Assembly (NCBI RefSeq): GCF_049060185.1 | Contig: NZ_JBMEQO010000002.1 | Length of the DNA stretch: 64,000 bases | Source of the DNA: Nannocystis pusilla | GTDB taxonomy: Bacteria > Myxococcota_A > Polyangia > Nannocystales > Nannocystaceae | Reading direction: 5' to 3' (one strand) | Shown here: positions 763 to 61,203 of the stretch, piece after piece | Layout of the letters: each line of letters begins with the position of its first letter | How positions within the stretch are numbered: the first letter of the stretch is position 1 | Made by a program: the position numbers and the translations under genes | The notes under the pieces: generated by a model | What the model was told of the DNA's origin: nothing | The model's database searches: none | What the model saw: only the letters and a program-made list of their open reading frames with translations

Positions 763-2371
763 GCTGCACCTCCTTCGGCCGCCGCCGCGATCGCGCGCAG
801 CACCGCGCTCGCCTTGACGTGGCACTCGTTGTCCTCGCCCTCCGGCGACGAGTCGTACACGACCCCCGCGCCGGCCTGGACCCGGAACTCCTCGCCGACG
901 GCGACCAGCGAGCGGATGCAGATGGCGAAGTCGGCCCCGCCGTCGTAGCCGAGGTAGCCGACCGCGCCGCCGTACCAGCCGCGCGGCGCCGGCTCGAGCG
1001 CGTCGATGATCTGCAGCGCGCGGATCTTCGGCGCCCCGCTCAGCGTCCCGGCCGGGAACGTCGCGCGCAGGGCGTCGAGCGCCGTCAGCTCCGGCCGCAG
1101 CTCGCCCTGCACCTCGCTGACGATGTGCATCACCCGGCTGTAGCGCTCGATCGAGAACGACTCCGACACGCGCACGCTGCCGGCCACGCTGACGCGCCCG
1201 AGGTCGTTGCGCCCGAGGTCGACCAGCATGAGATGCTCGGCGCGCTCCTTCGGATCGGCCAGCAGCTCGCTGGCCAGCGCCTCGTCCTCGACCGCATCGA
1301 CGCCGCGCCGCCGCGTGCCCGCGATCGGCCGCACCGTCACGCGCAGGCCCGACTGCGGGGCCGTCTCGCTGCTCGAGGCCCCGTCACCGCCGGCGCCAGC
1401 GCGTCGCGGTCGCAGCGGACCAGCACCTCGGGCGACGCACCCGTCAACGCCGCCGCCGGCAGGTCGAACAAGTACATGTACGGCGCCGGGTTGCCGACCC
1501 GCAGCATGCGATAGACGTCGAGCAGGTCGACCCCGTCGCGCCGGCTGACGAACCGCTGCGACAGCACGACCTGGAAGATGTCGCCGGCCATGATGTGCTC
1601 GCGCGCGGCCGCGATCGACGCGCGGTACTTCTCGCGCGACCACGGCGCCGCCACCTCGGTCGCCGGCGGCGCGATGTCCGGCACCCGCCGCGGCCCCAGC
1701 ACCGAGGGTCCGTGCAGCGCCCGCGCCACCGCGTCGACGCGGGCCCGCGCGGCCGCCTCCGCCGCCTCCGCCCCGCCCTCGCTCTCGGCGCACGCGGTCG
1801 CCAGCACGCGCACGCGGTTCGAGAAGTTGTCGAACACCACCAGAGTGTCGCTCGCCACCAGCTCGACCGCCGGCAGATCGCTCGACATGACCGAAAGGCC
1901 AGGTACGGCCGGGATCGGATCGAACACCCGCGCCGCGTCGTGGCCCCACACGCCGACCAGGCCGCCCCAGAAGCGCGGCAGATCGGGCCGCGGCGGGCTC
2001 TCGTAGGCCCGCTGCAGCGCGGCGATGCCGGCCAGGCCGCGGCTCCGGGTCTCGACCCCGGGCGGCAGCGAGAAGCCGGGCCCCGGGGTGATCGTCACGT
2101 CGAGGTCGTAGCCGTTCCACACCCCGCGCACGTGGGCCCGCGCGCCGACGCCGACCACGCTGTAGCGGGCCCACCGCTCGCCGGCCCCGCCCGCGCTCTC
2201 GAGCAGGAAGCTGACGCCCGGCAGGTCGGGCGGCCCCGAGCCGCCGCCGCGCGCGTAGGCCCGCAAGCGGGCGTAGACCTCGACGGGGGTGATGCCGTCG
2301 CACAGCAGCTCGCGCCACACCGGCACCAGCCGCGGCGACGCCGGCTCAATCAAGGGCGGGCCCGCGATCAT
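759..2371 (-). CDS. trpE: Anthranilate synthase component I (TrpE); frameshift near 1390
   Basis: The N-terminal part (ORF 1337..3181 from [21 protein letters not shown]) joins the C-terminal part (ORF 759..2318: [34 protein letters not shown]). These are chorismate-binding enzyme motifs. The ATG is at 2371. Confidence 0.85.
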
Positions 2372-2523
2372 GCCGTCAAGGATACACCGCGTCGGCCGAC
2401 GCGATCGACGGCGTAGATCGAGCTCCGAGGTAGGACACGCGTCCGCCCCGGCGGGACGCGTCGCGCGGCCGCGCATCGGAGCCTGTCCGCTCGCGCAGCC
2501 GCCGAGGTCCGCCCGCGCCGACG

Positions 2524-3159
2524 CTAACGGCGCCGGAGGTTCGCGCCGGAGTCGGTGTCGACGACCCGGACGTTGCCGAGCGTGTACCCCGCGGACGCCG
2601 TCGTCGAGGTGTCGAAGCGGACGCTGCCCGACACCACCGCGGTGCCGGTGGCGTCGACGAAGGCGTAGTTGACGATCAGGCTGTTGTCGGTCGCCGTGCC
2701 GACGGCCTGATTCACGACGTAGCCGGCCTCGGCCTTGGCCCGGATGTCGATCTTGGCCACGTTGTCGACCACCTGGACCCGCGAGTTGTTGACCGCCTGC
2801 CGCCACACCCGCTCGAAGGTGTCGTCGGCCGGGTCGAGCAGGGTCACGGTGCCGGTGGTGGCCGTCGGATCGGAGGTCTGGCGGGCCGTCTTGGTCACCG
2901 TCGCCGGCACGTCGGGGCACGGGTTGCCGACCAGCTTGATGGTGAGGGCGCCGACGTTCGCGCCGCCGACGTTGAGGAAGGACATCTTGAACTTGGTCTG
3001 CTCCTCGGGATCGCTCGAACTCTCGTCCTCCCATACGGTCGTCGTCCCGGTCAGCGCGGTCGTGAACGACGCGTTCAGGTCGATGTCGAGGTTGGCCACG
3101 GGCCCCGCCGCGACCCCCGTCTTCAGGACCAGATCTCGCCTCAGCTTCGGTGTCGGCAT
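2524..3159 (-). CDS. Hypothetical protein (Thr/Val-rich, ~211 aa)
   Basis: The ORF runs from MPTPKLRRDLVLKTG to the stop at 2524. It has no recognisable motifs. Its codon usage matches the locus. Confidence 0.5.
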   Translation of the reverse strand: MPTPKLRRDLVLKTGVAAGPVANLDIDLNASFTTALTGTTTVWEDESSSDPEEQTKFKMSFLNVGGANVGALTIKLVGNPCPDVPATVTKTARQTSDPTATTGTVTLLDPADDTFERVWRQAVNNSRVQVVDNVAKIDIRAKAEAGYVVNQAVGTATDNSLIVNYAFVDATGTAVVSGSVRFDTSTTASAGYTLGNVRVVDTDSGANLRRR

Positions 3160-3400
3160 GCTGTCTCTCGCCCGGGCGCAAGTTGCCCGGATCCCCCGGC
3201 GAATGAGCGTAGCCCGGGCGGCCAATGGATCAGTCGCAGGTACATACAAACACGTTACATCGCGCGCGTCGGCGCGCCGGCCAGGATCGCTCGCGCGGGT
3301 GCGCCCGATTGCGACGATGTAAGGCGAACCATCGGCCATGTCCGCATGAACATGGCCGAAAGGTCATCTCAAGAGAGAACCTGCCCGCGCCTGCGCCGCT

Positions 3401-6388
<2,988 letters not shown>

Positions 6389-6581
6389 GGGCCGGCGGCG
6401 TTGTGGGCCTGGAGGCGTGCGGCGCCCCTGTTTGCAGGGAGCGGCTGCAGCGCCGCCGCTGCGGGACGCGAAACGGCATTCGCCGTCCGGGCCTGCGGCG
6501 AACTCGGGGCCGCGTCGGGACCCGGCCGACGCGGCGCGCCGGGCTTGACTCCGCGGCCCTTCGAGCAGGAAAACCTCGGGC

Positions 6582-7839
6582 GTGCACGCCCGCGATCCCG
6601 AGCTCTCCGCCGCCGACCCCGAGATCTTCGCGCTGATCGAGCAGGAAGACGCGCGCCAGCGCGACAGCCTGCGCCTCATCGCCAGCGAGAATACGTGTCG
6701 AAGGCCGTGCTCGCCGCGACCGGCACCAGCCTCACCAACAAGTACGCCGAGGGCTACCCGGGCAAGCGCTACTACGAGGGCATGGACTTCGTCGACCCGA
6801 TCGAGTCCCTCGCCATCGCCCGCGCGCGCGAGCTGTTCGGGGCCGATCACGCCAACGTCCAGCCCTACAGCGGCTCGCCGGCCAACCTGGCCGCGCTGCT
6901 CGCCCTGTGCCAGACCGGCGACACCATCATGGGGCTGGCTCTCCCCGCGGGCGGTCACCTCACCCACGGCTGGAAGGTCAGCGCCACCGGCATCTACTAC
7001 AAGGCCGTCCAGTACGGCGTCCGCCGCGACGACCACCGCATCGACCTCGACGAGGTCCGCAGCCTCGCGCTCGCCAACCGGCCCAAGCTCATCTGGGTCG
7101 GTCACTCGGCCTACCCGCGTCAGCTCGACTTCGCCGGCTTCGCCGCGATCGCGCGCGAGGTCGGGGCCTACCTCGCGGCCGACATCGCGCACATCGCCGG
7201 CCTCGTCGCCGGCGGCGCGCACCCGAGCCCCGTGCCGCACGCCGACGTCGTCACCACCACCACGCACAAGACGCTCCGCGGCCCGCGCGGGGCCTCATCC
7301 TCAGCAAGGCCCAGCACGCGGCCGCGATCGACAAGGCGGTGTTCCCCGGCCTGCAGGGCGGCCCGCACTGCCACACCACCGCCGCCAAGGCCGTCGCCTT
7401 CCGCGAGGCGCTGCAGCCGAGCTTCCGCGACTACGCCCACCAGATCGTCGCCAACGCCCAGGCCCTCGCCGAAGCCCTGATCGCCCGCGGCCACGTCCTC
7501 GTGTCGGGCGGCACCGACAACCACCTGCTGCTCCTCGATCTCACGCCCACCGGCCAGGGCGGCCGCCACGTCGCCCGCGTGCTCAACCGCTGCGGCATCG
7601 AGCTCAACGCCAACGCCATCCCGTTCGACCCGCGCAAGCCGTTCGATCCCTCGGGCCTGCGCATCGGCCTGGCCGCCATCACCTCGCGCGGCATCGAGAC
7701 CCATCACATGCCGGTCGTCGCCGACCTCATCGCCGACGGCATCGCCCTCGCCGTCGAGAACGCCGACGAGGCCCGCTGCGAGGTCCACCGCGGCCGCGTG
7801 CGCGAGTTCCTGCGCGCCTTCCCGGCGCCCGGCCTCTGA
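6582..7839 (+). CDS. glyA: Serine hydroxymethyltransferase; two frameshifts (~6690, ~7285)
   Basis: The three frames join through [18 protein letters not shown], then [28 protein letters not shown], then [14 protein letters not shown] and [10 protein letters not shown]. The GTG start is at 6582. Confidence 0.88.
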
Positions 7840-7863
7840 TCGGCCGCGCCGCCCTCGCCGTCA

Positions 7864-9043
7864 TGCAGCCGTACCCCATCACCGCCATGGCCCTGTGCAA
7901 CGGCATGGGCGACAGCACCGCCGCCGTGCTCGCCGCCTTGCGTGCCGGTCGCTCCGGCCTCGGCCCGTGCCCCGCCGAGTTCGAGCTCGACGCCGTCGTC
8001 GGCGCCATCCCGACCCCGCTGCCGCCGCTGCCCGGCTTCCTCGGCACGGTCCGCGACACCCGGCAGGCGCGGATCGCCGCGGTCGCCCTGGCCGAGCTGC
8101 AGGCCCCGCTGGACCGCGCGCGCGCCCGCTGGGGCTCGGACCGCGTCGCCATCGTCCTCGGCACCAGCACCGGCGGCATCGAGGCCAGCGAGACCGCCTA
8201 CGCGCACGCGCAGGCCCACGGCGGCGCCCTCCCGGCCGACTACGACGTCGAGACCTCGCACGCCCTCGACGCAGTCCTGCACGTCGCTCGCGTCCTCGGC
8301 GGCGGCCTCGGCGGCCCGGCCTACGTCGTCTCGACCGCCTGCTCCTCCTCCGCCAAGGTGTTCGCCTCGGCCCAGCGATTGCTGGCCGCCGGCCTGTGCG
8401 ACGCGGTCCTGCTCGGCGGCGTCGACAGCCTGTGCCGCCTCACCGTGCGCGGCTTCGCCGGCCTCGAGGTCCTGTCCTCGCGGCCATGTCGCCCGTTCTC
8501 GAGCGAGCGGGCCGGCATCAACATCGGCGAGGGCGCCGCGCTGCTCCTGGTCGAACGGACAGGTGACGGCCCGGCCCGCCTGCTCGGCGTCGGCGAGAGC
8601 TCCGACGCCTACCACATGACGAGCCCGCACCCCGAGGGCCTCGGCGCGCGCATGGCGATGGAGCGCGCGCTCCGGCACGCGGGCCTCGGCGCCGCCGACG
8701 TCGACCACGTCAACGCCCACGGCACCGGCACCAAGCAGAACGACAGCATGGAGAGCGCGGCGATCCGGGCGGTGTTCGCCGGCGCCCCGCGCCCGCGGTG
8801 GTCGCCACCAAGGGCTACACCGGGCACATGCTCGGAGCCGCGGGCGCCACCGAGGTCGCCTTCGTCGTCGACGCCATCGCCGGCGGCTACCTGCCCGCCA
8901 GCGTCGGCGCCGATCCGCTCGACGACACCCTCGCGATCGACGTGGTCACCGCCCGCCGCGACGTCCCCACCCGCGCCGCGCTCAGCAACTCGTTCGCGTT
9001 CGGCGGCAGCAACTGCAGCGTCCTCGTCGGAGGCCCGGCATGA
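7864..9043 (+). CDS. Beta-ketoacyl-ACP synthase (FabF/FabB-like KS); frameshift near 8790
   Basis: Motifs are VVSTACSSS (active-site Cys), HMTSPHPEG, NAHGTGT, GYTGHMLGAAG and SNSFAFGGSNCSVLV. The TGA at 9041-9043 lies inside the first copy of an 18-bp direct repeat. Confidence 0.85.
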
Positions 9044-9139
9044 GCGCCTGCGCTTCCGGACATGTTCATCGGGACATGTCCCGATGTTCATCCTCCCCGC
9101 TGCCCGCCGCCCGCACCTTCCGAGGCCCGGCATGAGCGC
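9030..9139. mobile_element. 74-bp palindromic MITE/REP-like insert (9048-9121) flanked by a perfect 18-bp direct repeat GAGGCCCGGCATGAGCGC (9030-9047 and 9122-9139)
   Basis: The direct repeat is exact. Copy 1 carries the KS stop (TGA). Copy 2 carries the CLF ATG. The insert contains GGACATGTTC-atc-GGGACATGTCCC-GATGTTCATCC. Confidence 0.7.
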
Positions 9140-9935
9140 GCTCGCCTTCACCGTCCGCGGCCTCGGCTTCTGGACCCCCGGCTACCCCGACCTCGCCGCT
9201 TGGCGGGCCCGGCCCGACACCTGGCCCGAAAGCCAGGCCCCTCCGACCGAGCCGGCCGCCCCCAAGGCCGAGCTGCTGCCGCCGATGATGCGCCGGCGCA
9301 CCAGCCTGCTCACCCGCATGGCCGCCGAGGTCGCAGCCCAGGCGCTGCAGGACGGCGGCCTCGACCGGGCCGCGGCCACCCTCGTGTACGGCTCCGTCTA
9401 CGGCGAGATCCGCACCACCCTCGACCTCCTCGCCGCCTTGCTCGTCGCCGGCGAGCCGCTGTCGCCGACCAAGTTCCACAACAGCGTCCACAACACGGCG
9501 GCCGGCTACGTCTCGATCGCCACCGGCAACCGGGCCGGCAACGCCGCGCTGTCGGCCGGCCGCAGCACCCTCGCCATGGGCCTCGTCGAGTGCGCCGCCC
9601 TCGTGGCCGCCGGCGAGGGCGACGTCGTGCTCGTGATCGCCGAGGAGCCGCTGCCCGAGCCGCTGGCCGCCGGCCGCCGCTGGGACCCGTTCGCCGCCGC
9701 CTTCGCCCTGTCGGCGCCTGTCCCCGGCGACATGCCCGTGAGGACATGTCGCCTCGAACATGGCGCGAATGACATGCTCCCCGCGCCACGCCCGCTCCCG
9801 GCCGCCCTGGCCGCCAACCCCTGCGCCGCCGCGCTCGCGCTGATCGAGGCGCTGGCCGCCGGCGCCCCGGCGCGGATCGCCCTCGAGCCGCACCTCGCGA
9901 GCGGCTGGCAGTGCACGCTCGGAGCCGGGGCATGA
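9132..9935 (+). CDS. KS-like chain-length-factor type protein (beta-ketoacyl synthase N-domain, no active-site Cys seen)
   Basis: It reads MSALAFTVRGLGFWTPGY...TKFHNSVHNTAAGYVSIA. This is typical of the KS partner (CLF) in aryl-polyene/type II systems. Its stop overlaps the DH start (ATGA). It carries an internal GDMPVRTCRLEHGANDML stretch that coincides with a palindromic element. Confidence 0.7.
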   Translation: MSALAFTVRGLGFWTPGYPDLAAWRARPDTWPESQAPPTEPAAPKAELLPPMMRRRTSLLTRMAAEVAAQALQDGGLDRAAATLVYGSVYGEIRTTLDLLAALLVAGEPLSPTKFHNSVHNTAAGYVSIATGNRAGNAALSAGRSTLAMGLVECAALVAAGEGDVVLVIAEEPLPEPLAAGRRWDPFAAAFALSAPVPGDMPVRTCRLEHGANDMLPAPRPLPAALAANPCAAALALIEALAAGAPARIALEPHLASGWQCTLGAGA

Positions 9936-10379
9936 CCGCCGCCTTCCCGCCGGTGGCCGAGTTGGTCCCGCAGCGCCCGCCGATGCTCCTGCTCGACGAG
10001 GTCGTGGCCGCGGGCGACGACGGCATCACCTGCGCCGCAGTGGTCCGCCCCGACAACCTGTTCGTCGTCGACGGCCGGGTCCACGCCTCGGTCCTGCTCG
10101 AGTACATGGCCCAGGCGATCGCCGCGTTCGCCGGCCTGCGCGCGCGCCGACCATCAGCCGCCCGCGCTCGGCCTCATCGCCGCCTGTCGCAACCTCGAGC
10201 TGCACGCCGAGCACCTCGCCGTCGGCGACCCGCTGCAGATCGTCGCCACCCGCGTGTTCGCCGGCGCCATGGCCGAGTACCGCGCCGCGGTCACGCGCCG
10301 CGGCCAGCCGCTGGCCGAGGCCGTGCTCTCCGTCGTCCCCACCGCCCCACCCAGCACCTCCGCAGGGAGCCCCGCATGA
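9932..10379 (+). CDS. Hotdog-fold 3-hydroxyacyl-ACP dehydratase (ApeI/FabA/Z-like); frameshift near 10145
   Basis: It reads PMLLLDEVV...ITCAAVVRPDNLFVVDGRVHASVLLEYMAQAIAAF. After a frame switch it continues LGLIAACRNLELHAEHLAVGDPLQIV. Its stop overlaps the KR ATG. Confidence 0.65.
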
Positions 10380-11097
10380 AGCCACGCGCGCTCGTCACCG
10401 GCGCCAGTCGAGGATCGGCGCCGCGATCGCCGAGGCCCTCGCGGCCGTCGGCCACCCCATCATCCTCAACTACCGCAGCGACGACGCGGCCGCCGAGGCC
10501 GTCGCCGCCCGGATCCGCGCCGCCGGCGGCGAGGTCGTCCTCAGTCGCTTCGACGTCGGCGACGACGCGGCCGCCGACGCGGCGATGAACACCATCCTCG
10601 CCGACCCGCGGCCGCTCGGGGTCCTCGTCAACAACGCCGGGATCGCCCGCGACGCCCCGTTCCCCGCGCTCGAGCGGGCCGACTGGGAAGCTGTCCTTCG
10701 GACCAGCCTGGGCGGCTTCTACAACGTGACCCGCCCGGTGATCATGCCGATGGTGCGGCGCAAATGGGGCCGGATCATCACCATGAGCTCCGTCTCGGCC
10801 CAGCTCGGCAACCGCGGGCAGGTCGCCTACGCCGCGGCCAAGGCCGGCGTCATCGGCGCGACCAAATCACTGGCGCTCGAGCTCGCCCGCAAGGGCGTCA
10901 CCGTCAACGCGGTCTCCCCCGGCCTCGTCGACACCGACATGATCAAGGACGTCCCGCTCGACCACGTGATGCCGCGGATCCCGGCGCAGCGGCTCGGCAC
11001 CGCCCCCGAGGTCGCCGCGCTGGTCGCGTTCCTCGCCAGCGACGCCGCCGCGTACATCACCGGTCAGGTGATCGGCATCAACGGCGGCATGGTATGA
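10376..11097 (+). CDS. fabG: 3-oxoacyl-ACP reductase (FabG-like SDR); frameshift just after start (~10405)
   Basis: It reads MKPRALVTGASRG[IG], then NNAGIARD, then S..YAAAKAG, then PGLVDTDM and ITGQVIGINGG. These are classic SDR motifs. Confidence 0.8.
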
Positions 11098-11104
11098 CCC
11101 GGCC

Positions 11105-12304
11105 ATGCACGACGTCCTGATCGTCGGGGCCGGCCCGGCCGGATCGACCGCCGCCAACTTGCTCGCGCAGGCGGGCGTCCGGGCCGTCACGCTCGACAAG
11201 GACGTGTTCCCGCGCTTCCACATCGGCGAGTCGCTGCTGCCGATCGACCTGCCGATCTTCGCCCGCCTCGGCGTCGCCATGGATCGCACGAGCTGGCAGT
11301 TCAAGCAGGGCGCCGAGTTCATCGACGAGCGCACCGGCGAGTTCGCCTTCTTCAGCTTCGCCGACGGCCTCGAGGGCACGCCTCCGCATGCCTGGCAGGT
11401 CGACCGCGCCGCCTTCGACACCATGCTGTGCGACGTGGCGAAGAGCCGCGGCGCCGACATCCGCTTCGGCGAGCGCGTGCGCGACATCGAGTTCGCCGAC
11501 GATCACGTCCGCGTCGTCACCGACCGCGAGGAGCACCGGGCCCGCTTCCTCCTCGACTGCACCGGCCAGGACGCCATGCTCGGCCGCGGCGCCCGCACCA
11601 TCGCCCCGCTGCACGAGCTCGGGCGCGCCGCCGTCTTCTGCCACTTCGACAACCTCTCGCCCGAGGTCCGCGCCGAGCTCGGCGAGCAGGGCAACATCAA
11701 GGTGCTGATCGTCGAGGACGGCTGGCACTGGCTCATCCCCATGCACGGCGGTCGGCTCAGCGTCGGCCTCGTGAAGTGGCGCGGCAAGCTCGACGACGAC
11801 GCCTTCGAGGCCGCCCTGGTCGCCTCGCCGTTGTGCCGCCGGCTCACCGCCGGGGCCACCCGCAGCGCCTCGCGGACGATCCGCAACTGGAGCTACAAGA
11901 ACACTCGCCCCTCCGGCCCGCGCTGGGCCTGCGTCGGCGACGCCTGCGCATTCCTCGATCCCGTGTTCTCCTCGGGCGTCTCGCTGGCGATGCTGGGCGC
12001 CGAACGCACCGTCGACCTCCTCGTCCCGGCGCTCGCCGAGGGCCGCGAGGCTGCGGCCGATCTCATGGCCCCGGTCCACGCCACCATGCAGGTCGCCTAC
12101 GACAGCTTCGAGCAGCTGATCCGCCGCTTCTATCACACGCGCCTCGTGTCGCACCTGTTCTTCGCCCGCACGCCCGACCCCCGGCTGCGGCGCGGCCTCA
12201 TCAGCATGCTCGCGGGCGACGTCTGGCGCGACGACAATCCGTTCCAGGACATGCTGCGAAGCTCTCGAGTGCAGCCGCAGCGGGTCACCGCCCCGAGCGA
12301 GTGA
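11105..12304 (+). CDS. Flavin-dependent halogenase (tryptophan-halogenase family)
   Basis: It has the FAD-binding motif GAGPAGS and the halogenase signature EDGWHWLIPMHGG (WxWxIP). The ORF is intact. Confidence 0.8.
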   Translation: MHDVLIVGAGPAGSTAANLLAQAGVRAVTLDKDVFPRFHIGESLLPIDLPIFARLGVAMDRTSWQFKQGAEFIDERTGEFAFFSFADGLEGTPPHAWQVDRAAFDTMLCDVAKSRGADIRFGERVRDIEFADDHVRVVTDREEHRARFLLDCTGQDAMLGRGARTIAPLHELGRAAVFCHFDNLSPEVRAELGEQGNIKVLIVEDGWHWLIPMHGGRLSVGLVKWRGKLDDDAFEAALVASPLCRRLTAGATRSASRTIRNWSYKNTRPSGPRWACVGDACAFLDPVFSSGVSLAMLGAERTVDLLVPALAEGREAAADLMAPVHATMQVAYDSFEQLIRRFYHTRLVSHLFFARTPDPRLRRGLISMLAGDVWRDDNPFQDMLRSSRVQPQRVTAPSE

Positions 12305-12395
12305 CTGCAAGCTTTGTAAGCTAGATCGCAATCTGGTCACTCGTCGCCTCCCCGACCTCCGCGAACGGCCGAGGCCGGCGCCCGGTGGTTGCGTG

Positions 12396-12407
12396 TGCAA
12401 CGTTGCA
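12396..12407. promoter_or_regulatory. Perfect 12-bp palindrome TGCAACGTTGCA 45 bp upstream of the lipoprotein start (candidate operator)
   Basis: The sequence is an exact inverted repeat inside the only AT-rich intergenic stretch here. Confidence 0.3.
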
Positions 12408-12452
12408 TTGCCCGCTCCCATTGTTCCCTCATCGGCGTCGGGAACGAGTCGC

Positions 12453-13697
12453 ATGCACGCACGCATCCCTCTTCGCATCCGGGTCGGCGCCGATTGGCGC
12501 GTCGCGGCGGCTCTGATGCTGGCGGGCTGTCTCGATCGCAACGGCGGGCACATCGATCCGACCACGGTCGAGCTCTCGACCGGCAGCGGCACCGCCAGCA
12601 GCACCAGCAGCAGCGGCAGCAGCGGCCCCGGCATCATGACCACCACCGTCGATCCGGGCGGCAGCGACGGCGACAGCGGCTCGACCGGTGACCCGACGCC
12701 CGCGCCGTGCGGCAACGGCAAGATCGACGTGCCCGAGCAGTGCGATCAGGGCGACGCCAACGGCGACGACCGCGAGTGCACGTCCTCCTGCCGCTGGAAC
12801 ATCTGCGGCGACGGCCTGCTCGAGGCCGGCGACGAGGTCTGCGACGACGGCAAGGGCAAGAACGGCACCTACGGCCACTGCGGCAAGTACTGCATGGACT
12901 TCTCCCCCCACTGCGGCGACGGCATGTTGCAGGCGGCCCACGGCGAGGTCTGCGACGACACCAATCCGATGTACGGCTGCCTCCCCGACTGCACGCCGGC
13001 GACCTCGTGCCTCGACATCCGCACCGGCTGGGGCGACGCGGCCCAGACCGGCCTCTTCTCGATCCGTCGCGAGGACAGGCAGGTGACCGTCTGGTGCGAC
13101 ATGCAGGCCGACGGCGGCGGCTACACTCTAAAGTACGCATCGGGCACGCAGGTCCCGAACCCGCCCGAACCGGACAAGTTCATCGGCGAGCCGCTCACCG
13201 CGGCGCAAGCCGAGGAGAAGTGCGCCTCGTGGGGCCTGCGCCTGTTCTCCCCGCGCACCCAGCAGCACCTGCGAGCCGCGGTCACCGCCGCGAGCGCCGC
13301 CGAGTTCGCCCCGGTCCACGCCACCGGCGACTACCCCGCGGGCGTCGCCGCCGACAGCAACGCCGCCGGCTACCTGTCGATCATGGGCATCTATCCCGTC
13401 ACCCCGGGCCTCAGCTGCGAGAGCAAGCCGCTCAACAGCGAGGACTGCCCGCAGTGGGCCGCGAAGCCCGATCCGCAGGACCCCGACGTCGTGATGCCCT
13501 ACTGGGTCACCGACAAGATCTTCCTCGGCCAGCCGGACACGGGCAACTGCGCCGGCTGCTCGCTCCTCTACGACTGGAACCTGCAGGTCCAGCCGCCCGT
13601 CCTCACCGGCTACTTCGCGTTCAACATGATGACGGGCGCGAGCAGCCCGCACTTCCTGTGCGAAGTCGGCGACAAGCTCGGCCCGCCCGAGGGCTGA
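12453..13697 (+). CDS. Secreted lipoprotein with myxococcal Cys-rich repeats and C-terminal fibrinogen-like (FReD) domain
   Basis: It has a signal peptide and lipobox (LMLAGC). It has CGNGKIDVPEQCDQGD...CGDG repeats and the FReD hallmark VTVWCDMQADGGGYTL. The ORF is intact. Confidence 0.7.
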   Translation: MHARIPLRIRVGADWRVAAALMLAGCLDRNGGHIDPTTVELSTGSGTASSTSSSGSSGPGIMTTTVDPGGSDGDSGSTGDPTPAPCGNGKIDVPEQCDQGDANGDDRECTSSCRWNICGDGLLEAGDEVCDDGKGKNGTYGHCGKYCMDFSPHCGDGMLQAAHGEVCDDTNPMYGCLPDCTPATSCLDIRTGWGDAAQTGLFSIRREDRQVTVWCDMQADGGGYTLKYASGTQVPNPPEPDKFIGEPLTAAQAEEKCASWGLRLFSPRTQQHLRAAVTAASAAEFAPVHATGDYPAGVAADSNAAGYLSIMGIYPVTPGLSCESKPLNSEDCPQWAAKPDPQDPDVVMPYWVTDKIFLGQPDTGNCAGCSLLYDWNLQVQPPVLTGYFAFNMMTGASSPHFLCEVGDKLGPPEG

Positions 13698-14054
13698 GGC
13701 CTGCCCCATCGGACATGTCCTGGCGCGCCTGTCCTCGAGGACACCCGGTTCCTCCGCCTGACCGCTCACGCGCCCCCATCGTCAGCCGGGTCGTGCTGAC
13801 CTCCTGGCGTCTACGTCCTCGAGCACACCTGTCGCGGCCATACGCCGGACGCCTCACGCGCTCGCAGCATCTGCTCGGCAACGCCGATGCTGTCCACGCG
13901 AACGGTTCACGAGCACTGGCCACGTCATGGCGTGTCTGCTCGCAAGAGACACCCCGTCGCCCGACGGCTCACGCGCTCGCAGCGTCCGCTCAGCCAGGCC
14001 GACCCCGTCCGGACCCGCTTCTCATCCCCGGTCGCGTGCAGTCGCACGCCTGAC
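13698..14054. repeat. Repeat-rich convergent intergenic region with GGACATGTCC-type palindromes plus direct repeats
   Basis: At 13715-13733 it reads CGGACATGTCCTGGCG. At 13738-13749 it reads GTCCTCGAGGAC. CTCACGCGCTCGCAGC units lie 115 bp apart (13853 and 13968). Confidence 0.7.
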
Positions 14055-14654
14055 TCAGGTGACCCCGAGCGACTCCAGCAGCTCCACCACCTCCGCGAGC
14101 GGCAGGCCGACCACGTTCGTGTAGCTGCCCTCGATCTTGCGCACCAGCCCGGCCGCTGCGCCCTGGATCCCGTAGGCCCCGGCCTTGTCGCGCCACTCCT
14201 CCGTGTCGAGGTAGCGATCGATCTGCGCCGGAGTCAGCGGCCGGAACCACACCGTCGTCGTCACCGCGAACGGGTGCCAGCGGACCTCGGGCCCGCGCAG
14301 GTCCGCGATCGCCACGGCCGTGGTCGTGAAGTGGGAGCGGCCCGCCAGCCGCGTCAGCATCGCCGCCGCCTCCGCGCGGTCGGCCGCCTTCGCCAGCGGT
14401 TCGACCTGTCCTTCGAGCCAGACCGTCGTGTCGGCCGCCAGCACCACCGAACCTGGCCGCAAGGCCAGGTCGGCCTTGGCCCGCGCCACCCGCTCGACGT
14501 ACGCCGGCGGCGGCTCGCCGGGCAGCCAGGTCTCGTCGGCGTCCACCGGCGCGCGCGTACACGCGATCCCGGCCGAGCGCAGCAGTTCGGCCCGCCGCGG
14601 CGACGCCGAGGCGAGGACGAGGACAGGCGGGGTCAGCGGAGCGGGCTCGGTCAT
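14055..14654 (-). CDS. maf: Maf-like nucleoside triphosphate pyrophosphatase
   Basis: It reads VLASASPRR.ELL...AADTTV and AGAYGIQG. The ATG is at 14654. Confidence 0.8.
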   Translation of the reverse strand: MTEPAPLTPPVLVLASASPRRAELLRSAGIACTRAPVDADETWLPGEPPPAYVERVARAKADLALRPGSVVLAADTTVWLEGQVEPLAKAADRAEAAAMLTRLAGRSHFTTTAVAIADLRGPEVRWHPFAVTTTVWFRPLTPAQIDRYLDTEEWRDKAGAYGIQGAAAGLVRKIEGSYTNVVGLPLAEVVELLESLGVT

Positions 14655-14977
14655 GGCCGGCTTTTGCCGGAAAGCGACCCTGCGCGCAACCTCGCCGCGG
14701 CGCCCGCCCGCGGGTACGACGAGGCTCTGCCCGCCACGGCACGGTCGTGCACCTGCGCGTCTGGGCCCCTTCGACGCTGACGCCAGCTCGAGGGCCCCAT
14801 GGTCGCGGTGGCACCCCTGCGAGCCGAGAGTTTCGTGCGCTTCACCTCGCTCGCGCAGCCCTCGCGCCAGACGCCCGGCGCCCGGCTGCGACGCAGCCAC
14901 GGCCGTGCCGGACGAGCCCGCGAACGGCCCGGCGGCGGCCCGGCGGGCCCGGCGGCGGTGCGTGCTACCATCTCGGC

Positions 14978-15943
14978 ATGCGGCGCCCCTTCTGCCTCTC
15001 GAGCGTCTACCTCCTCGCGGTCCTCGCGCTGTCGGCCCCGTTCATCGCCGTCGAGGCGCCCGACGCCGAACCTGTCCCCGAGGACACCTGCGACGCCGAC
15101 GCCGTCGACCCCGACCTGCTGGGCGTCTGGCACCGCTGGGACGCCCTCGCCGAGGGCGACCGCATGCGCTTCTACTTCTTCCACGAGGGCGGCTTCGGCC
15201 TCTACCGCTACGGCAAGGTCGGCCTCACCAACACCCACAGCTTCGACTACCGCGCCGAGGGCGGCCACCTCGAGCTCACCTTCCGCAAGACCGGCGAGCG
15301 GCGGCGCGTCCCCTACCGCCTCGAGGAGCAGGGCGGACGCACCTGGCTGGTCCTCGACGAGGACCCGCGCGAGCCCGGCGGCGCCCGCTACTTCAAGGCC
15401 CCGGCGGCCGCCACCGGCGCGCCCTGCTTCGATCCGGCCGGCGACCTGCCCCAAAAGCCAGGCGTCGGCGACCTGCCCCGAGAGCCAGGCACCCCCGCGC
15501 CCGCACTGCTCGCCGCGGGCCTGCCCCGAGAGCCAGGCGCCCCCGCGCCGCTCGCCGCCGCCGACCTCGCCGCCGCCGAGCGGATCGGCGGGCGCCTGTG
15601 GGGCGAGGAGGTCCGTTACGCCACCGGCGGCATGGGCTTCTCGATCTACCAGCTGCAGCCGCAGGCGATCGACGGCCGCGGCGTCGGCTGGCACCACCGC
15701 GGCGACTACGACGAGTGGACCACCGAGACCCTGACCTACCGCCAGCGCGGCGATCGCCTGGCCCTGTCGTTCCCGCTGCGCCACGACGGCCTCGAGACCG
15801 CGATCCTCGTCAGCGGCAGCGGCGACGACCGCACCCTCCAGCTCGCCGAAGATCCGCGCGACTTCTGGCGCGCCCACACCTACCGCGACATGGGCCCCAC
15901 CTTCGCCGGCGCGGTCGCCCCGAGCGCCTGCCTGCCGCAGTGA
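14978..15943 (+). CDS. Hypothetical secreted protein
   Basis: It has a signal peptide MRRPFCLSSVYLLAVLALSAPF. It has internal LPREPGxPAP repeats. It has no recognised domain. Confidence 0.5.
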   Translation: MRRPFCLSSVYLLAVLALSAPFIAVEAPDAEPVPEDTCDADAVDPDLLGVWHRWDALAEGDRMRFYFFHEGGFGLYRYGKVGLTNTHSFDYRAEGGHLELTFRKTGERRRVPYRLEEQGGRTWLVLDEDPREPGGARYFKAPAAATGAPCFDPAGDLPQKPGVGDLPREPGTPAPALLAAGLPREPGAPAPLAAADLAAAERIGGRLWGEEVRYATGGMGFSIYQLQPQAIDGRGVGWHHRGDYDEWTTETLTYRQRGDRLALSFPLRHDGLETAILVSGSGDDRTLQLAEDPRDFWRAHTYRDMGPTFAGAVAPSACLPQ

Positions 15944-15995
15944 CCCCGCCGTCGACGCCGCCTCCGCCTGTCTCTTCGCGCAGGCCCTTTAGAAC

Positions 15996-16725
<730 letters not shown>

Positions 16726-16960
16726 GGAAGTGCGACGAGAGCCTCGGCCCGCCTCGCGCCGTCGCACGACGTTCCTCGCCGCCGTCCCGACCGTTCAGCC
16801 CGCCGCCCGGCTCGAGCGCTAGCGTCGGACGAGCCTCCGCGGCGGTTCAGCCCGCCAACATCCCTCGCCTGCGTCGGCGCCATGACGTGCGACCGCGTCG
16901 GAAATCTCGCGCTCCGCCAGGGCTCGTGACCGAGGGCAAGCGGCGCGGCCGCGGGCGCCC

Positions 16961-18297
16961 ATGTCCCCGCGCGGCGCGGCGTGCTATCGCAGGCGCGTGC
17001 CCAAGGCACCCCTGCTCGCACCGCCCGGGCCCCCGACGATCTCCTTTCACTGGGACGGCGCCCCGGTCGCCGCGTGCCCCGGCGACACCGTCGCCTCCGC
17101 GCTGATCGCCGCCGGCGAGCTCGCCACCAGCCGCAGCGCCAAGTACCGCCGGCTGCGCGGCTCCGCCTGTCTGCACGGCGGCTGCGGCACCTGCCTCGTG
17201 CGCGTCGACGGCCGGCCCAACCAGCGGGCCTGCCTCACGCCTGTCCGCGAGGACATGCGCGTCGAGCCGCAGAACACCTACGGCGGCCTCGACCCGACCG
17301 CCCTCGTCGACCAAGTGTTCCGCCGCGGCATCGACCACCACCACCTCGTCGTCTACCCGCGAATCGCCAACCAAATGATGCAGGGCGTCGCCCGCGAGCT
17401 GGCCGGCTTCGGCGAGCTGCCCGACGCGCCGCCCGAAGACGTCGCCGGTGTCGTCGACCATGCCCCCGAGGTCCTGGTCATCGGGGCAGGTCGCTCCGGC
17501 CGCGCGCTCGCTACGACTCTGGCCGCCGCCGGCCACCCGCCGCTGGTCGTCGAGCGCCGCCCCGCCGCCGCTCTCGGCGGCAGCGACCTCCCGGCCCGGC
17601 TCCTCGCTGGCGTCGGCGTGTTCGCCTGCTACCCGCAGGAGCGGCTGTGGGCCGCCGCCTCCGAGCAGCCAGCGGTGCTCCACCGCCTGCGCCCGCGCCA
17701 CGTCGTGCTGGCCGTCGGCGCCCACGAGCCGACCATCCCGCTGGCCAACAACGACCTCCCGGGGTCGTGTCCGCACGTGGCCTCGCGGACATGCTCGAAC
17801 AGACAGGTCGCAAGCTCAGCGCGCGCGTCGTCGTCGTCGGCGAGGGCGCCCGCGCCGAGCTGCTGGCGAGCACCCTCGCCGCCGAGCGCGTCCCGCCGGC
17901 GCGCGTGCGCAAGCTGATCGGGGCGCGCCGGGTCAAAGGCGTCCAGCTCGAGGACGGCAAGATCCTCCGCTGCGACCTCGTCGCCCTCGCCCCCGACCCC
18001 GCGCCCGCCTTCGAGCTGGCCGCCCAGGCCGGCGCCCCGATCCACTTCACCGGGGCCGGCTTCGCCCCCGTCGTCGACGCCGACGGCCGGATCGCCGCCG
18101 GCCCGGCCGCGCACCCGCTCGAGGCCGAGGGCGCCCAGACCGCCCCGCCCCGCCGTGGACGCTGTGGGCCGTCGGCGAGCTGGCCGGCGCCACCACCCCC
18201 GCCGAGATCCGCGGCACCGTCGACCGCTGCGCCGCCGCCCTGGTGCGCGCGCTCGCCGAGTCACCTGCCCCGAAGGACAGCCATGCCCGCGCCTGAC
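16961..18297 (+). CDS. HcnB/OoxA/SoxA-like pyridine-nucleotide-disulfide oxidoreductase subunit with N-terminal 2Fe-2S domain; frameshifts (~17775, ~18160)
   Basis: The N-terminus reads [23 protein letters not shown]...[15 protein letters not shown]. It has two GxGxxG-type folds ([20 protein letters not shown]). Confidence 0.6.
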
Positions 18298-18347
18298 CTG
18301 TCCCTGCGGTCGCCGCCGAGCTCCCTCCTGCCCCCGCGAGGCCTGCC

Positions 18348-18641
18348 ATGACCGCGCGCACCTTCGTCTGTCGCTGCGAGGACGTCACTCTGACGGAGAT
18401 CGAGCGGGCCATCGCCGCCGGTCTGTCGGACGTCGAGGAGATCAAGCGCTACACCGGCCTCGGCACCGGGCCGTGCCAGGGCAAGGAGTGCCTGTCGGCG
18501 CTGGGGCGGCTGCTCGTCGCCCGCAACTTGATCGCGCCCGCTGCCCTGCGCCCGTTCACCGCCCGGCCGCCGGTCGAGCCGGTGACCTTCGGCGCCCTCG
18601 CGGCCGGCGCGAGCGAGCACCCGGAGGATCCGTCGCCATGA
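18348..18641 (+). CDS. Small [2Fe-2S]-binding subunit (HcnA/BFD-like)
   Basis: It reads [16 protein letters not shown]...[10 protein letters not shown]. Its stop overlaps the next ATG (ATGA). Confidence 0.65.
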
Positions 18642-19837
18642 CCGTTGCGATGGGCCGCGCCGACACCCCGCTGCCGGCCGAAGTCGACGTCGCGGTGATC
18701 GGCGGCGGCATCATGGGCCTGGGGCTCGCCTACCACCTGGCCCTGCTGTCCGGCGGCAAGGGCAAGCCGCCGCTGTCGGTCGCGGTCATCGAGCGCAGCT
18801 ACCTCGTCAGCGGCGCCTCCGGGCGCAACGGCGGCGGCGTGCGCATGCAGTGGGGCGACGCCGGCAACGTCCGCTTGATGATGGACAGCATCGAGCTGTG
18901 CAAGGACCTCGCGCAGCAGCTCGGCATCAACTTGTGGTTCCGCCAGGGCGGCTACCTGTTCCTCGCTCGCACCGAGGCCGGCGAGCGTCGGCTCGAGCGC
19001 AACGTCCAGCTGCACGGCGAGGTCGGGGCGCCGACCCGCCTGCTCACCGCCGCCGAGGCGCAGGCGATCGTCCCCCAGCTCGACGTCGCCGAGGTCCGGC
19101 TCGCCACCTTCAACCCCGAAGACGGCGTCGTGTTCCCGTGGGCCTTCGTGTGGGGTTACGCCGCCAAGGCCGTCGAGCGCGGCGTCGTCCTGCGCACGCA
19201 CACCAGCGTCGTCCGCGTCGAGCCGCTGGCCCAGGGCTTCGCGCTGCACCTGCACACCGGCGAGGTCGTGCGTGCGCGCCGGGTCGTCAACGCCACCGGC
19301 GCGTGGTCGGGCGCGCTCAACCGCCAGCTCGGCATCGACCTGCCCAACCGCCCGCACCGCCACGAGATCCTCTCGAGCGAGCCGCTCAAGCCGTTCCTCG
19401 ATCCGCTGGTCGTCGATCTCTCGAGCGGCCTCTACTTCTCTCAGAGCACCCGCGGCGAGCTCGTCACCGGCATCAGCCTGCCCGACGCGCCCGACGGCAG
19501 CGACGAGAGCCTCACCCTCCACTCCAGCCTCCGCTTCCTCACCCACCTCAGCGCCACGCTCACGCGCCTGATGCCGATCACCGCGGCGATGAAGGTCCTG
19601 CGGCAGTGGGTCGGTCCTTACGACGTCTCGCCCGACGGCGACGCGATCGTCGGCCCCAGCCCCGGCCACCCCGACTTCATCCAGGTGTGCGGCTTCACCG
19701 GGCACGGCTTCATGATGGCGCCCGCGGTGGGTCGGCTGCTGGCGCGCTGGCTCGCCCTCGGCGAGACCCACCCGATGCTGGAGCGCTGGTCCCCGGGTCG
19801 CTTCACCGCCGGGGCGTCGCCCGCCGCGAGGACATGA
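18638..19837 (+). CDS. FAD-dependent oxidoreductase subunit (HcnC/SoxB/DAO-like)
   Basis: It reads DVAVIGGGIMGL and GASGRNGGGV. It reads H.HGF at the C-terminus. Confidence 0.7.
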   Translation: MTVAMGRADTPLPAEVDVAVIGGGIMGLGLAYHLALLSGGKGKPPLSVAVIERSYLVSGASGRNGGGVRMQWGDAGNVRLMMDSIELCKDLAQQLGINLWFRQGGYLFLARTEAGERRLERNVQLHGEVGAPTRLLTAAEAQAIVPQLDVAEVRLATFNPEDGVVFPWAFVWGYAAKAVERGVVLRTHTSVVRVEPLAQGFALHLHTGEVVRARRVVNATGAWSGALNRQLGIDLPNRPHRHEILSSEPLKPFLDPLVVDLSSGLYFSQSTRGELVTGISLPDAPDGSDESLTLHSSLRFLTHLSATLTRLMPITAAMKVLRQWVGPYDVSPDGDAIVGPSPGHPDFIQVCGFTGHGFMMAPAVGRLLARWLALGETHPMLERWSPGRFTAGASPAART

Positions 19838-50831: not shown

Positions 50832-51510
50832 GATGACACAAACCAACACGGCAGCATTCGTCCGCGTCGAAGGCATCCTGCTCGCCCGCGGCGTGCTCAG
50901 CGCGGCGGCCTATCTGGCCGGCAACGCCAAGAAGTTCGGTGAGCGGGCCGTCCGCCTCGGCCTCGTCGGCCTCGCCGCCCCGGTCCACCGCCTGCTCGGA
51001 CAGACTGACCGCGCGCTGGCCCACCGCCTCGCCCACCTCGCCATCCGTGGCATGAGCCAGGACCGCGTCGAGGTCCTGTGCGAGGAGTACGCCGAGGATG
51101 TCCTGAAGGACACGATCCTCGATCAGGGCCTGGAGCTGCTCAAGCGCCTGCAGGCCGAGGGGCGGCGGGTCGTGCTGCTGTCGGACAGCATCGAGCCGAT
51201 CATGAAGCCGCTCGCGCGCCACCTCAAGCACTACGACGAGCTCGTCTACAACAAGATCGAGTTCGAGGACGGCGAGGCCACCGGCAAGCTGCTCGACCCG
51301 GTCATCGGTTCGAACGTCGGCGGCCGCTGGCTCGACGACTACGCCGCCGCCCACAACTTCGAGCTGTCGCGCTGCGCCGCCTACGGCGCCCACGGCCCGG
51401 ACATGCTGCTGCTCTCGCGCGTCGGCAAGCCGTGCGCCGTCAACCCCGACTTCGTCCTGCGCCGCAGCGCCAAGGACGCCGACTGGCCGATCATCGATTA
51501 TCGCGACTGA
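50832..51510 (+). CDS. HAD-IB family hydrolase (phosphoserine-phosphatase-like)
   Basis: It has an SDS-type motif (VVLLSDS) and a GD..D motif. Confidence 0.65.
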
Positions 51511-51538
51511 CCTTGGGGACAGGAACCGGAGGACACCC

Positions 51539-53223: not shown

Positions 53224-53227
53224 CACC

Positions 53228-54372
<1,145 letters not shown>

Positions 54373-54382
54373 CCCTTCGAAC

Positions 54383-57493: not shown

Positions 57494-58261
57494 TCGACTG
57501 GACCTACAGCGAAGGCGTGTACGAGCTGACCCTCGCCACGCCGCCGTGCAACGAGATCGGCACGACCATGCTCGCCGATCTGCGCCGCTTCCTCGACCAG
57601 ATCGATCGCGACGCGCACACGCTGATCCTGCGCAGCGGCCTGCGCCAGGGCTTCTGCGCCGGCGCCGACCTGCGCGAGCTCTACCGCGGCCTCTCCGACG
57701 CGCCGAAGGACCAGCACGGCCCGCAGATCCGCCAGTTCATCGACGCCATCCACGGCGTCATGGACGACCTCGACATGCTGCCGTTGACCACCGTCGGCGT
57801 CGTCCACGGCGTCTGCTTCGGCGGCGGCTTCGAGCTCGCGCTCACCTGCGACGTCCTGATCGCCGAGAAGACCGCGCGCTTCTGCTTCCCCGAGCTGCGC
57901 CTCGGCATCATCCCCGGCTTCGGCGGCATCCCGCGGCTGCGCCGCGACGTCGGCAACGGCCTCATCCGCGACCTCCTGCTCAGCGGCCGCAGCATCAACG
58001 CCAAGAAGGCGCTGGCGGCCGGCCTCGTCAGCCAGGTCCTCGCCAGCGGCGAGGGCATCACCGCCGCGCGCGCTCGCGGCCCAGACCGCCAAGTTCGACA
58101 AGACCGCGCGCGAGGCCGCCAAGGCCTTCATCAAGAAGCTCCCGAAGGACGAGTTGCTCGCCGAGCGCGAGCTGTTCGTCCGCCTCGCCGAGGGCCCGGC
58201 GCTGCTGGCCGCCCTCAAGCGCTTCGTCGAGTCCACCGACCTGAGACCGTACCTGCCATGA
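57490..58261 (+). CDS. Enoyl-CoA hydratase/isomerase (crotonase); frameshift near 58080
   Basis: It reads FCAGADL and VHGVCFGGGFELAL. ATGA overlaps lie at both ends. Confidence 0.75.
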
Positions 58262-58490
58262 GCACCTCCTCGACACCCTCATTCGTCTCGCCGCCAAGCG
58301 CTTCGGCGCCGACCCGGCCCAGCTCCGCGCCGAGGACGACCTGTTCGAGCGCCTCGGCATCGACAGCTTCCAGGCCGTCGAGCTCATCTCGGACGTCGAG
58401 GACGAGTTCGACGTCGAGCTGCCCGACTACGAGCTCCAGGGGATCAAGACCTTCGCCGCCCTGGCGCAGAAGATCGACGCGAGGCGCTAG
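58258..58490 (+). CDS. Acyl carrier protein; 1-nt indel right after the ATG
   Basis: It reads FERLGIDSFQAVELISDVEDEFDVELPD (DSL/F phosphopantetheine site). Confidence 0.65.
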
Positions 58491-60205: not shown

Positions 60206-60290
60206 ACCGCCGCGGGCTACCGCCGCTCACGCCCCATAACCGCGGCCATCCGCCCCTCCACGGCCCTCCGGGGCCTGATAGCATGCCCGC

Positions 60291-61199: not shown

Positions 61200-61203
61200 T
61201 GTA

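Follow-up and report, generated by a model that had tools for sequence, protein, structure and literature searches.

We analysed a 64,000-nt stretch of Nannocystis pusilla DNA (assembly GCF_049060185.1, contig NZ_JBMEQO010000002.1; hereafter the window), in which five co-directional genes on the + strand, at 7863–12304 between glyA and a lipoprotein gene, encode a ketosynthase (KS), a chain-length factor (CLF), a hotdog dehydratase (DH), a ketoreductase (KR) and a flavin-dependent-halogenase-type enzyme. We consider it quite likely that this block (the cassette) is the polyketide synthase (PKS) and tailoring half of an aryl-polyene (APE) lipid gene cluster that is split in Nannocystis. Each protein belongs to the corresponding family, the split is observed in three related genomes, and the arrangement is collinear with contiguous clusters elsewhere; from these observations we infer the chemical steps of the pathway, halogenation included, and a partner locus in this particular genome. 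The cluster is of a known kind, and what distinguishes it is the conserved split, with the synthase half lying 23 nt behind glyA. A preliminary description of this DNA had placed the same five genes between glyA and the lipoprotein gene (with a start 1 nt off) and had read them as an aryl-polyene-type cluster; the description of the genes is confirmed in part, and the interpretation is supported.

The G+C content of the window is ∼72%, and plain lists of open reading frames (ORFs) are full of long spurious frames and of frameshifts that merge or split genes. Gene models were built from a frame plot of third-position GC (GC3), three-frame translation with diagnostic peptides and alignment to N. 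bainbridge. The frame plot shows a single coding strand (+) across 6582–12304, with several abrupt frame switches within genes. The features of this region, with the evidence for each, are as follows.

7863–9043, + strand: KS, ApeO-type ketosynthase, ∼392 aa (PRK09185; ApeO in PDB)
9048–9139, no strand: insertion of 92 bp between KS and CLF (alignment to N. bainbridge, repeat mapping)
9132–9935, + strand: CLF, ApeC-type chain-length factor, 267 aa (PF13723; ApeC in PDB)
9932–10379, + strand: DH, ApeP-type hotdog dehydratase subunit, ∼149 aa (PF22817; ApeP in PDB)
10376–11097, + strand: KR, ApeQ-type ketoreductase, a FabG-like short-chain dehydrogenase/reductase, 240 aa (NF004200; ApeQ in PDB)
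11105–12304, + strand: flavin-dependent-halogenase-type enzyme, 399 aa, intact (PF04820; motifs)
6582–7839, + strand: glyA (serine hydroxymethyltransferase), context gene (frame plot, translation; PF00464 on the N. bainbridge orthologue in locus L001)
12453–13697, + strand: lipoprotein with lipobox LAGC (TIGR02232, NF040941; DUF4215 faint)

Overlaps of the ATGA type, described earlier for all junctions from KS to KR, are present at CLF/DH (9932–9935) and DH/KR (10376–10379), but not at KS/CLF, where the KS stop (9041–9043) and the CLF start (9132) are separated by the 92-bp insertion.

Family assignment of the five proteins

The KS passes the NCBIfam model PRK09185 (ApeO-type) with 439.8 bits (cutoff 407), and remains below the cutoffs of the models for FabF (TIGR03150; 217 bits, cutoff 494), FabB (PRK07967; 126 bits, cutoff 630) and ApeR-type KS (PRK09116; 140 bits, cutoff 470), and far below that of KasA. 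We regard it as ApeO-type because in the canonical APE cluster of Shewanella the KS at the ApeO position matches PRK09185 (at 577 bits), and the KS at the ApeR position matches PRK09116. Its best matches in PDB are the ApeO proteins of Xenorhabdus doucetiae (6QSP_A) and Acinetobacter baumannii (7F28_B) at 250 bits, against 169 bits for the best FabF and 112 bits for ApeR (7F27), so that it does not group with the primary FabB/FabF enzymes, which the preliminary description had named as the outcome that would speak against its reading. The identities of the Ape structures are taken from PMC8358021 and PMC8041823 (e.g. 7F28 is AbApeO-AbApeC, PMC8358021). The motifs of the Cys-His-His triad are present (TACSSS, HGTGT and TGH), and the protein is 94% identical to its intact 393-aa orthologue in N. 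bainbridge.

The other three proteins of the synthase likewise have APE enzymes as their nearest solved structures, among the APE clusters of X. doucetiae, Escherichia coli CFT073 and A. baumannii (ApeA–R). The CLF matches PF13723 (Ketoacyl-synt_2; 2.8e-41), and its best PDB matches are ApeC, 7F28_A (6.8e-13) and 6QSP_B (2.5e-11). It is a truncated protein resembling the N-terminal part of a KS, and its ApeC-aligned region reads SVHNTAAG, without the Cys-containing KS active-site motif, an absence read off the ApeC alignment rather than formally mapped to the KS Cys position. The DH matches PF22817 (ApeP-like; 2.5e-10) with ApeP (6QSR_B; 1e-5) as its nearest solved structure, and no NCBIfam family, the FabZ and FabA models included, matched it. 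The KR passes the FabG model NF004200 (324 bits, cutoff 273) and is just below the cutoffs of FabG2 and FlxB; ApeQ-type reductases would probably pass this generic model too, because they are similar to FabG, and in PDB the KR scores 232 bits with ApeQ (7CAW, AbApeQ; 6NRP) against 185 bits with E. coli FabG (1I01). Neither an enoyl reductase nor an acyl carrier protein (ACP) is encoded within the cassette.

The fifth protein matches PF04820 (Trp_halogenase; 9e-30) and carries the motifs GAGPAG (G8–G13), K67, GWHWLIP (206–212) and GDACAFLDPVFSSG; the WxWxIP motif is thus intact, as first described. GxGxxG, the catalytic Lys and WxWxIP are the defining motifs of flavin-dependent halogenases (PMC5945002). 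With K79 of PrnA and K76 of CndH as reference positions for the catalytic Lys, K67 aligns with K76 of CndH (phmmer alignment). G8, G10, G13, K67, W207, W209, I211 and P212 are invariant in an alignment of 14 sequences (A1), and among the homologues the Lys is kept in 80 of the 81 whose alignment reaches the site, and WxWx(I/V/L)P in 83 out of 83. The best PDB match is 3NIX (3.5e-47), which is annotated only as ‘flavoprotein/dehydrogenase’ and which we take to be a Cytophaga hutchinsonii protein; it is followed by the halogenases 8ZOP, CndH (3E1T), 5BUK, PltA (5DBJ), ChlB4 and CmlS (3I3L), several of which presumably act on carrier-bound or small phenolic or pyrrolic substrates. All functionally named PDB relatives are halogenases and the Lys and WxWxIP hallmarks are kept, contrary to the grouping with unrelated FAD monooxygenases that the preliminary description had named as speaking against its reading. 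An exact-sequence look-up gave no match, and homologues were used instead: the enzyme is 91% identical to its N. bainbridge counterpart, and the nearest 90%-identity cluster (93%) holds N. exedens, N. pusilla, N. punicea, N. radixulma and two other strains.

The partner locus in related genomes

A pattern scan of halogenase homologues, with one genome per species, gave 80 loci. Homologues at ∼33–60% identity adjoin APE-type KS genes, and usually also CLF, DH and KR genes, in Myxococcota, Planctomycetota, Gammaproteobacteria (Chromatiales, Methylococcaceae and Shewanella), Acetobacteraceae and Mariprofundaceae; no KS was found within 10 kb of the homologues (∼40% identity) of Rhodanobacteraceae. 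A ‘probable halogenase’ has been noted in APE clusters of Acetobacteraceae (PMC8776678). The KS-adjoining loci are embedded in a larger conserved cluster (two ACPs, ligase, ApeI, GT2/Lip_A_acyltransferase, aromatic lyase, 4HBT thioesterase, LolA and MMPL-type exporter). For example, the Shewanella cluster, with two ACPs, an AMP-ligase, ApeI, a GT2/lipid-A-acyltransferase, an aromatic ammonia-lyase, a 4HBT thioesterase, a LolA-like protein and an exporter of 800 aa, is a canonical APE cluster in which both halves are contiguous and in the same order. Enhygromyxa and Nannocystaceae ST9 also have contiguous clusters, with the order LolA-MMPL-DUF3261-KS-CLF-DH-KR-KS2-halogenase. In the Nannocystis loci and a group of Myxococcales metagenome-assembled genomes (MAGs; loci L002–L004), and in no others, the five genes stand as a bare cassette between unrelated flanks. 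All-versus-all ORF clustering of 27 loci lumped the KS with the halogenase and produced antisense ‘families’, and it served as a guide only, confirmed by Pfam searches and tblastn.

With the Enhygromyxa exporter as bait, a partner locus was located in three genomes that carry the bare cassette:

N. bainbridge: cassette on contig 4; partner locus on contig 2
N. punicea (complete genome, CP114040): cassette at 4.445–4.450 Mb, minus strand; partner locus at 4.747–4.758 Mb, plus strand; 297 kb apart
MAG GCA_020633335 (distant Myxococcales, halogenase 62% identical): cassette on contig 10; partner locus on contig 4

The gene order of the partner locus is identical in all three: ACP, a hypothetical protein, a ligase fused to ApeI, GT2, Lip_A_acyltransferase, aromatic lyase, 4HBT thioesterase, LolA, MMPL and DUF3261 (in N. 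punicea, ACP through DUF3261 lie at 2417–13026 of locus L089). It is collinear with the contiguous clusters over their 5' part and stops after DUF3261, at the very point where the cassette would follow. The two loci are complementary: KS, CLF, KR and ApeP are missing from the partner locus, and the cassette lacks ACP, ligase, thioesterase and exporter genes. The preliminary description had remarked that the cassette lacks its own ACP, AMP-ligase, thioesterase and LolA/MMPL genes and might draw on partners elsewhere. The first point is borne out, and the second is borne out in relatives, as APE-type versions of these proteins (dedicated ACP, AasS-like ligase, glycosyltransferase/acyltransferase, LolA-like and MMPL) are absent from the window, and in the relatives a second locus does hold ACP, ligase, thioesterase, LolA and MMPL. 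In N. punicea, an extra short-chain dehydrogenase gene (L089:1464–2243, − strand) is divergent from the partner-locus ACP gene; it is not so placed in N. bainbridge.

The same description had pointed to an AMP-ligase/ACP set ∼45 kb downstream. Such a set exists (55851–60131), but it is not an APE partner and belongs to a separate, unrelated lipid locus (50857–61995, + strand), which encodes a HAD hydrolase, two NAD_binding_4 (fatty-acyl-reductase-type) proteins, a pyruvyl-transferase-like protein, two AMP-binding enzymes, an enoyl-CoA hydratase, an ACP (58251–58487), a diacylglycerol-kinase/YegS-like protein and a PlsC-type acyltransferase. We rejected this locus as the source of ACP and ligase: it has no similarity to APE partner proteins at E ≤ 1e-3, and its ligases share only weak AMP-binding similarity (26–27%) with the ligases of other loci.

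Compared with the APE reference clusters, the partner locus of the relatives shares the ACP, GT2, LpxL-like acyltransferase, 4HBT thioesterase, LolA-like and MMPL genes, and, like A. baumannii, it has an AasS-like ligase fused to the ApeI dehydratase, as in ApeH. The differences are that the Nannocystis cluster is in two loci ∼300 kb apart, that its CLF gene directly follows the KS gene whereas apeC is at the opposite end of the E. coli cluster (PMC8253772), that a halogenase-type gene is present in the cassette, that the partner locus has one ACP, and that, in the relatives examined, neither the cassette nor the ∼10 kb around the partner locus showed an ApeR-type KS. The cluster could do without such a KS, because in vitro ApeO-ApeC suffices for the full-length polyene (PMC8358021) and an E. 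coli apeR mutant still produces the APE lipid (PMC8253772). The relatives also carry a tyrosine-ammonia-lyase-like gene, whereas the 4-hydroxybenzoic acid starter of the APE reference clusters comes from ubiquinone metabolism. The closest organisms with described APE clusters are the marine Nannocystineae Enhygromyxa salina and Plesiocystis pacifica (PMC6226438): their clusters are contiguous, encode proteins 52–60% identical to those of the window, and keep the ApeR-type KS2 (PRK09116), whereas in Nannocystis the cluster is broken between DUF3261 and KS and KS2 is lost at the locus. In the accessible portions of the literature mentioning both Nannocystis and arylpolyene, no Nannocystis APE cluster is described.

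Two pigment systems are similar in other respects. Chlorinated flexirubins are known, and the flexirubin clusters of Bacteroidota encode a tyrosine ammonia-lyase (FlxA) and a reductase (FlxB): the KR scores 272.8 bits with the FlxB model and the partner-locus lyase 306 bits with the FlxA model, both below the curated cutoffs (340 and 700, respectively), and the closest solved relative of the halogenase-type enzyme, 3NIX, also recalls this system. Unlike in flexirubin clusters, however, neither locus showed DarA/DarB dialkylresorcinol genes, and those for export and attachment are of the kind known from proteobacterial APE clusters. In xanthomonadin-type clusters (Xanthomonas; Lysobacter enzymogenes ORF16/17), a halogenase gene likewise lies near a conserved KS-CLF pair, and the Xanthomonas products are brominated aryl-polyenes (PMC3691225). 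Their starter is 3- or 4-hydroxybenzoate formed by a XanB2-type chorismate-utilising enzyme (PMC3949708), in contrast to the aromatic ammonia-lyase of the Nannocystis relatives. A gene for a chorismate-binding protein (PF04715 and PF00425; anthranilate/para-aminobenzoate-synthase type) is located ∼5 kb upstream of the cassette (∼1024–2400, − strand; L001:1–1349 in N. bainbridge); it is syntenic in all Nannocystis loci seen, and there is no evidence of its feeding an aryl starter.

Frameshifts, the KS/CLF insertion and alternative explanations

Three of the genes are frameshifted in the window relative to N. bainbridge, which the preliminary description had missed: KS by a 1-nt deletion near 8788, DH by a 2-nt deletion near 10138 and KR by a 1-nt deletion at 10414. 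In the same comparison glyA has three 1-nt deletions (6583, 6692 and 7291), and further deletions of 1–2 nt are found in a Ser/Thr kinase gene (four) and in the chorismate-binding, DAO, Ala_racemase_N-family and Fer2_4 genes; the positions across 1383–19811 are 1383, 4579, 5355, 5739, 6344, 6583, 6692, 7291, 8788, 10138, 10414, 16519, 17758, 18148 and 19811. All frame-changing indels inside orthologous genes are small deletions in the window, and nearly every compared gene is affected. To judge from the alignments, these frameshifts are almost certainly systematic consensus or assembly errors and not cluster decay, because the deletion-only pattern also strikes the housekeeping gene glyA three times. 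With a systematic consensus error of this kind, ORF-based readings of the window therefore need frameshift-tolerant methods.

All five cassette genes are intact in N. bainbridge (L001), N. punicea (L088), the metagenomic relative (L085) and L002. The N. bainbridge locus is fully syntenic with the window (kinase, glyA, KS of 393 aa, CLF of 266, DH of 151, KR of 240, halogenase of 399, lipoprotein and Maf), with 4-bp overlaps at KS/CLF, CLF/DH and DH/KR. The window differs from it, and from the metagenomic relative, by 92 extra bases (9048–9139), both relatives being without the insertion. The insertion is flanked by a 21-nt direct repeat (9027–9047 and 9119–9139) that duplicates the ATGA stop/start junction, an ORF of 31 codons (9040–9135) spans both duplicated junctions, and a perfect 20-nt palindrome, CATCGGGACATGTCCCGATG, lies inside it (9067–9086). 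At the same junction (L088:7823–8027) N. punicea has a homologous 206-bp insert of two tandem units with the same direct repeat, and there the KS and CLF genes are intact. The alignments indicate that the insertion is real. The core of the palindrome, GGACATGTCC, occurs in 11 copies in the window (at 5703, 9072, 13711, 21065, 23052, 28103, 28131, 28298, 42849, 49025 and 49067) where 0.06 would be expected; most lie shortly after the end of a gene, often arrayed with degenerate ACATGT-containing copies ∼14 nt apart. The insert resembles a single copy of a small dispersed repeat, and GGACATGTCC itself could be either such a repeat or a regulator-binding array.

The gap of 23 nt between the end of glyA and the KS start corresponds to gaps of 24–34 nt in N. 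bainbridge, the metagenomic relative and N. punicea, and because it is so short the cassette is likely to be co-transcribed with glyA; a scan for promoter and terminator consensus sequences gave nothing usable on the + strand. The lipoprotein on the other side has myxobacterial Cys-rich repeats (TIGR02232) and a fibrinogen-like YCDxxxxGGGW region, and scores 27.9 bits with NF040941 (cutoff 30). One copy follows the halogenase gene in N. bainbridge, the metagenomic relative and N. punicea, and two copies in L002 (11434–13941) and L004. It is the sole flank conserved beside the cassette in both split lineages, the outer flanks being different, and its membership in the APE system is uncertain.

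Several observations weigh against an APE role of the cassette in this strain. As sequenced, three of its five genes (KS, DH and KR) are frameshifted, and if these deletions are real the cassette is dead here. Between N. bainbridge and the metagenomic relative, dN/dS is high for CLF (0.71) and DH (0.91), although the ratio is unreliable at ∼95% GC3, where near-saturation compresses dS, and glyA itself gives 0.34. The closest solved structure of the fifth enzyme, 3NIX, has no assigned function, the literature search turned up no biochemical test of any member of this halogenase subfamily, and no flavin reductase gene adjoins the cassette. Finally, the partner-locus proteins have no tblastn match (E ≤ 1e-3) in the window, which spans only 7.8 kb upstream and 52 kb downstream of the cassette, so that the partner locus was not seen in this genome; this fits the geometry of N. 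punicea, because the partner there lies ∼300 kb beyond glyA.

Among the alternatives, the one we take most seriously, though we think it unlikely, keeps the pathway and makes the fifth enzyme a flavin monooxygenase or reductase acting on the aryl-polyene (e.g. by ring hydroxylation or double-bond reduction) instead of a halogenase. The enzyme does have hits to TIGR02032, the model of the geranylgeranyl-reductase superfamily (103 bits, cutoff 158.8), and to QhpG-type monooxygenases, proven halogenases are longer than its 399 aa, and its subfamily has no characterised member, the best structural match being 3NIX. But practically every homologue examined keeps the catalytic Lys and WxWxIP, WxWxIP is thought to prevent monooxygenase chemistry (PMC5945002), the functionally named structures all belong to halogenases, and in xanthomonadin-type clusters halogenase genes lie beside the KS-CLF pair of a product carrying 0–2 Br (PMC3691225). 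Far less can be said for primary fatty-acid synthesis: a set of FabF/FabZ/FabG paralogues would explain the general family similarity, the 217 bits with TIGR03150 and the passed FabG model, yet the FabF, FabB and KasA models are far from their cutoffs while the ApeO-type model is passed, the KS is paired with a truncated CLF (PF13723), no NCBIfam model matches the ApeP-like DH, the block has no enoyl reductase or ACP, and it is collinear with APE clusters of other taxa, so that this explanation is hardly credible.

Two further readings accept the enzymes and change their fate. The cassette might be an autonomous mini-PKS that acquired a role of its own after the split, works with the housekeeping AcpP or another ACP (e.g. 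that of the lipid locus in the window) and makes an unsaturated acyl chain that has no aryl group, may be halogenated and is perhaps linked to the lipoprotein. Cassette and Cys-rich lipoprotein form a conserved unit in both split lineages among differing outer flanks, the cassette probably shares a transcript with glyA rather than with the partner locus, and AcpP may partly replace ApeF in E. coli (PMC8253772); even so we find this improbable, as the partner locus is intact and in the same order in every checked cassette-bearing genome, each half is incomplete alone, the ApeP-type DH is without the catalytic His that the distal ApeI domain would provide, and the lipid-locus ligases and ACP are not orthologues of the N. 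bainbridge ligase-ApeI fusion and ACP, which have no tblastn match in the window (E ≤ 1e-3). There is a similarly small chance that the split is non-neutral, with the glyA-linked cassette and the lipoprotein as a separately regulated module that has a second product role beyond the classical APE lipid; for example, its polyenoyl or halogenated product could modify or partner the lipoprotein, or feed another ACP-dependent lipid pathway. Decay of the cassette to a remnant of pseudogenes in this strain is more doubtful still: it would account for the frameshifts in KS, DH and KR and for an insertion that breaks the KS/CLF overlap, but small frame-changing deletions run through the whole window, three in glyA, four in the kinase gene and others elsewhere, as is the signature of assembly error, intact orthologues are present throughout Nannocystis and in a lineage of just 62% identity, and N. 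punicea has kept both KS and CLF whole although its insert at this junction is larger.

Proposed pathway and its meaning

Under the split-cluster reading, the two loci would act together at the dehydratase. The ApeP-type subunit keeps the hotdog Glu (LLEYMAQ) and has no conserved His at the canonical site in 15 orthologues, canonical Shewanella included, whereas the ApeI-type domain keeps the GHF His motif and lacks the Glu in the alignment (compared loci: window 9932–10379, L084:3418–5340 and L054:2764–3135). ApeP and ApeI may thus be complementary half-sites encoded across two loci, which fits the stable heterocomplexes reported among Ape enzymes (PMC8253772) and the ApeH-ApeP dehydratase pairing (PMC8358021).

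The pathway would begin with the distal locus supplying the starter: a tyrosine-ammonia-lyase-like enzyme would probably form p-coumarate, and the AasS-like ligase fused to the ApeI dehydratase domain would load it onto the dedicated ACP. The KS-CLF heterodimer of the window (ApeO/ApeC type) would elongate it with malonyl units, each beta-keto group would be reduced by the ApeQ-type KR, and dehydration would take place at the ApeP-type hotdog subunit, with the Glu from ApeP and the His from the distal ApeI domain; with no enoyl reductase, the product would be a conjugated polyene. Halogenation of the aryl head is a well-motivated inference: the halogenase-type enzyme would probably chlorinate or brominate the phenol ring at the position ortho to its OH, would most likely act on an ACP-bound intermediate, and would use FADH2 supplied by a reductase whose gene lies elsewhere. 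Next, the distal thioesterase, glycosyltransferase and LpxL-like acyltransferase would link the acid to its lipid anchor, and the LolA-like, MMPL and DUF3261 proteins would carry the product to the outer membrane.

The understanding of how APE systems work is unchanged by these findings. APE clusters are as a rule detected and scored as one contiguous unit; here, the synthase and the putative halogenase are stably separated, in at least two lineages (with halogenases only 62% identical), from the genes for carrier, starter, attachment and export. Mining tools would score the locus as a fragmentary ‘arylpolyene’ and probably miss or mis-type the other half, and heterologous expression of either locus alone should fail. 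The split is also a natural test of how tight co-expression must be for the ApeI/ApeP and KS/ACP partnerships. The literature search gave no report of a chlorinated or brominated aryl-polyene lipid from Nannocystis and no biochemical study of an APE-associated halogenase; the prediction from the split cluster is that Nannocystis makes a chlorinated or brominated aryl-polyene lipid.

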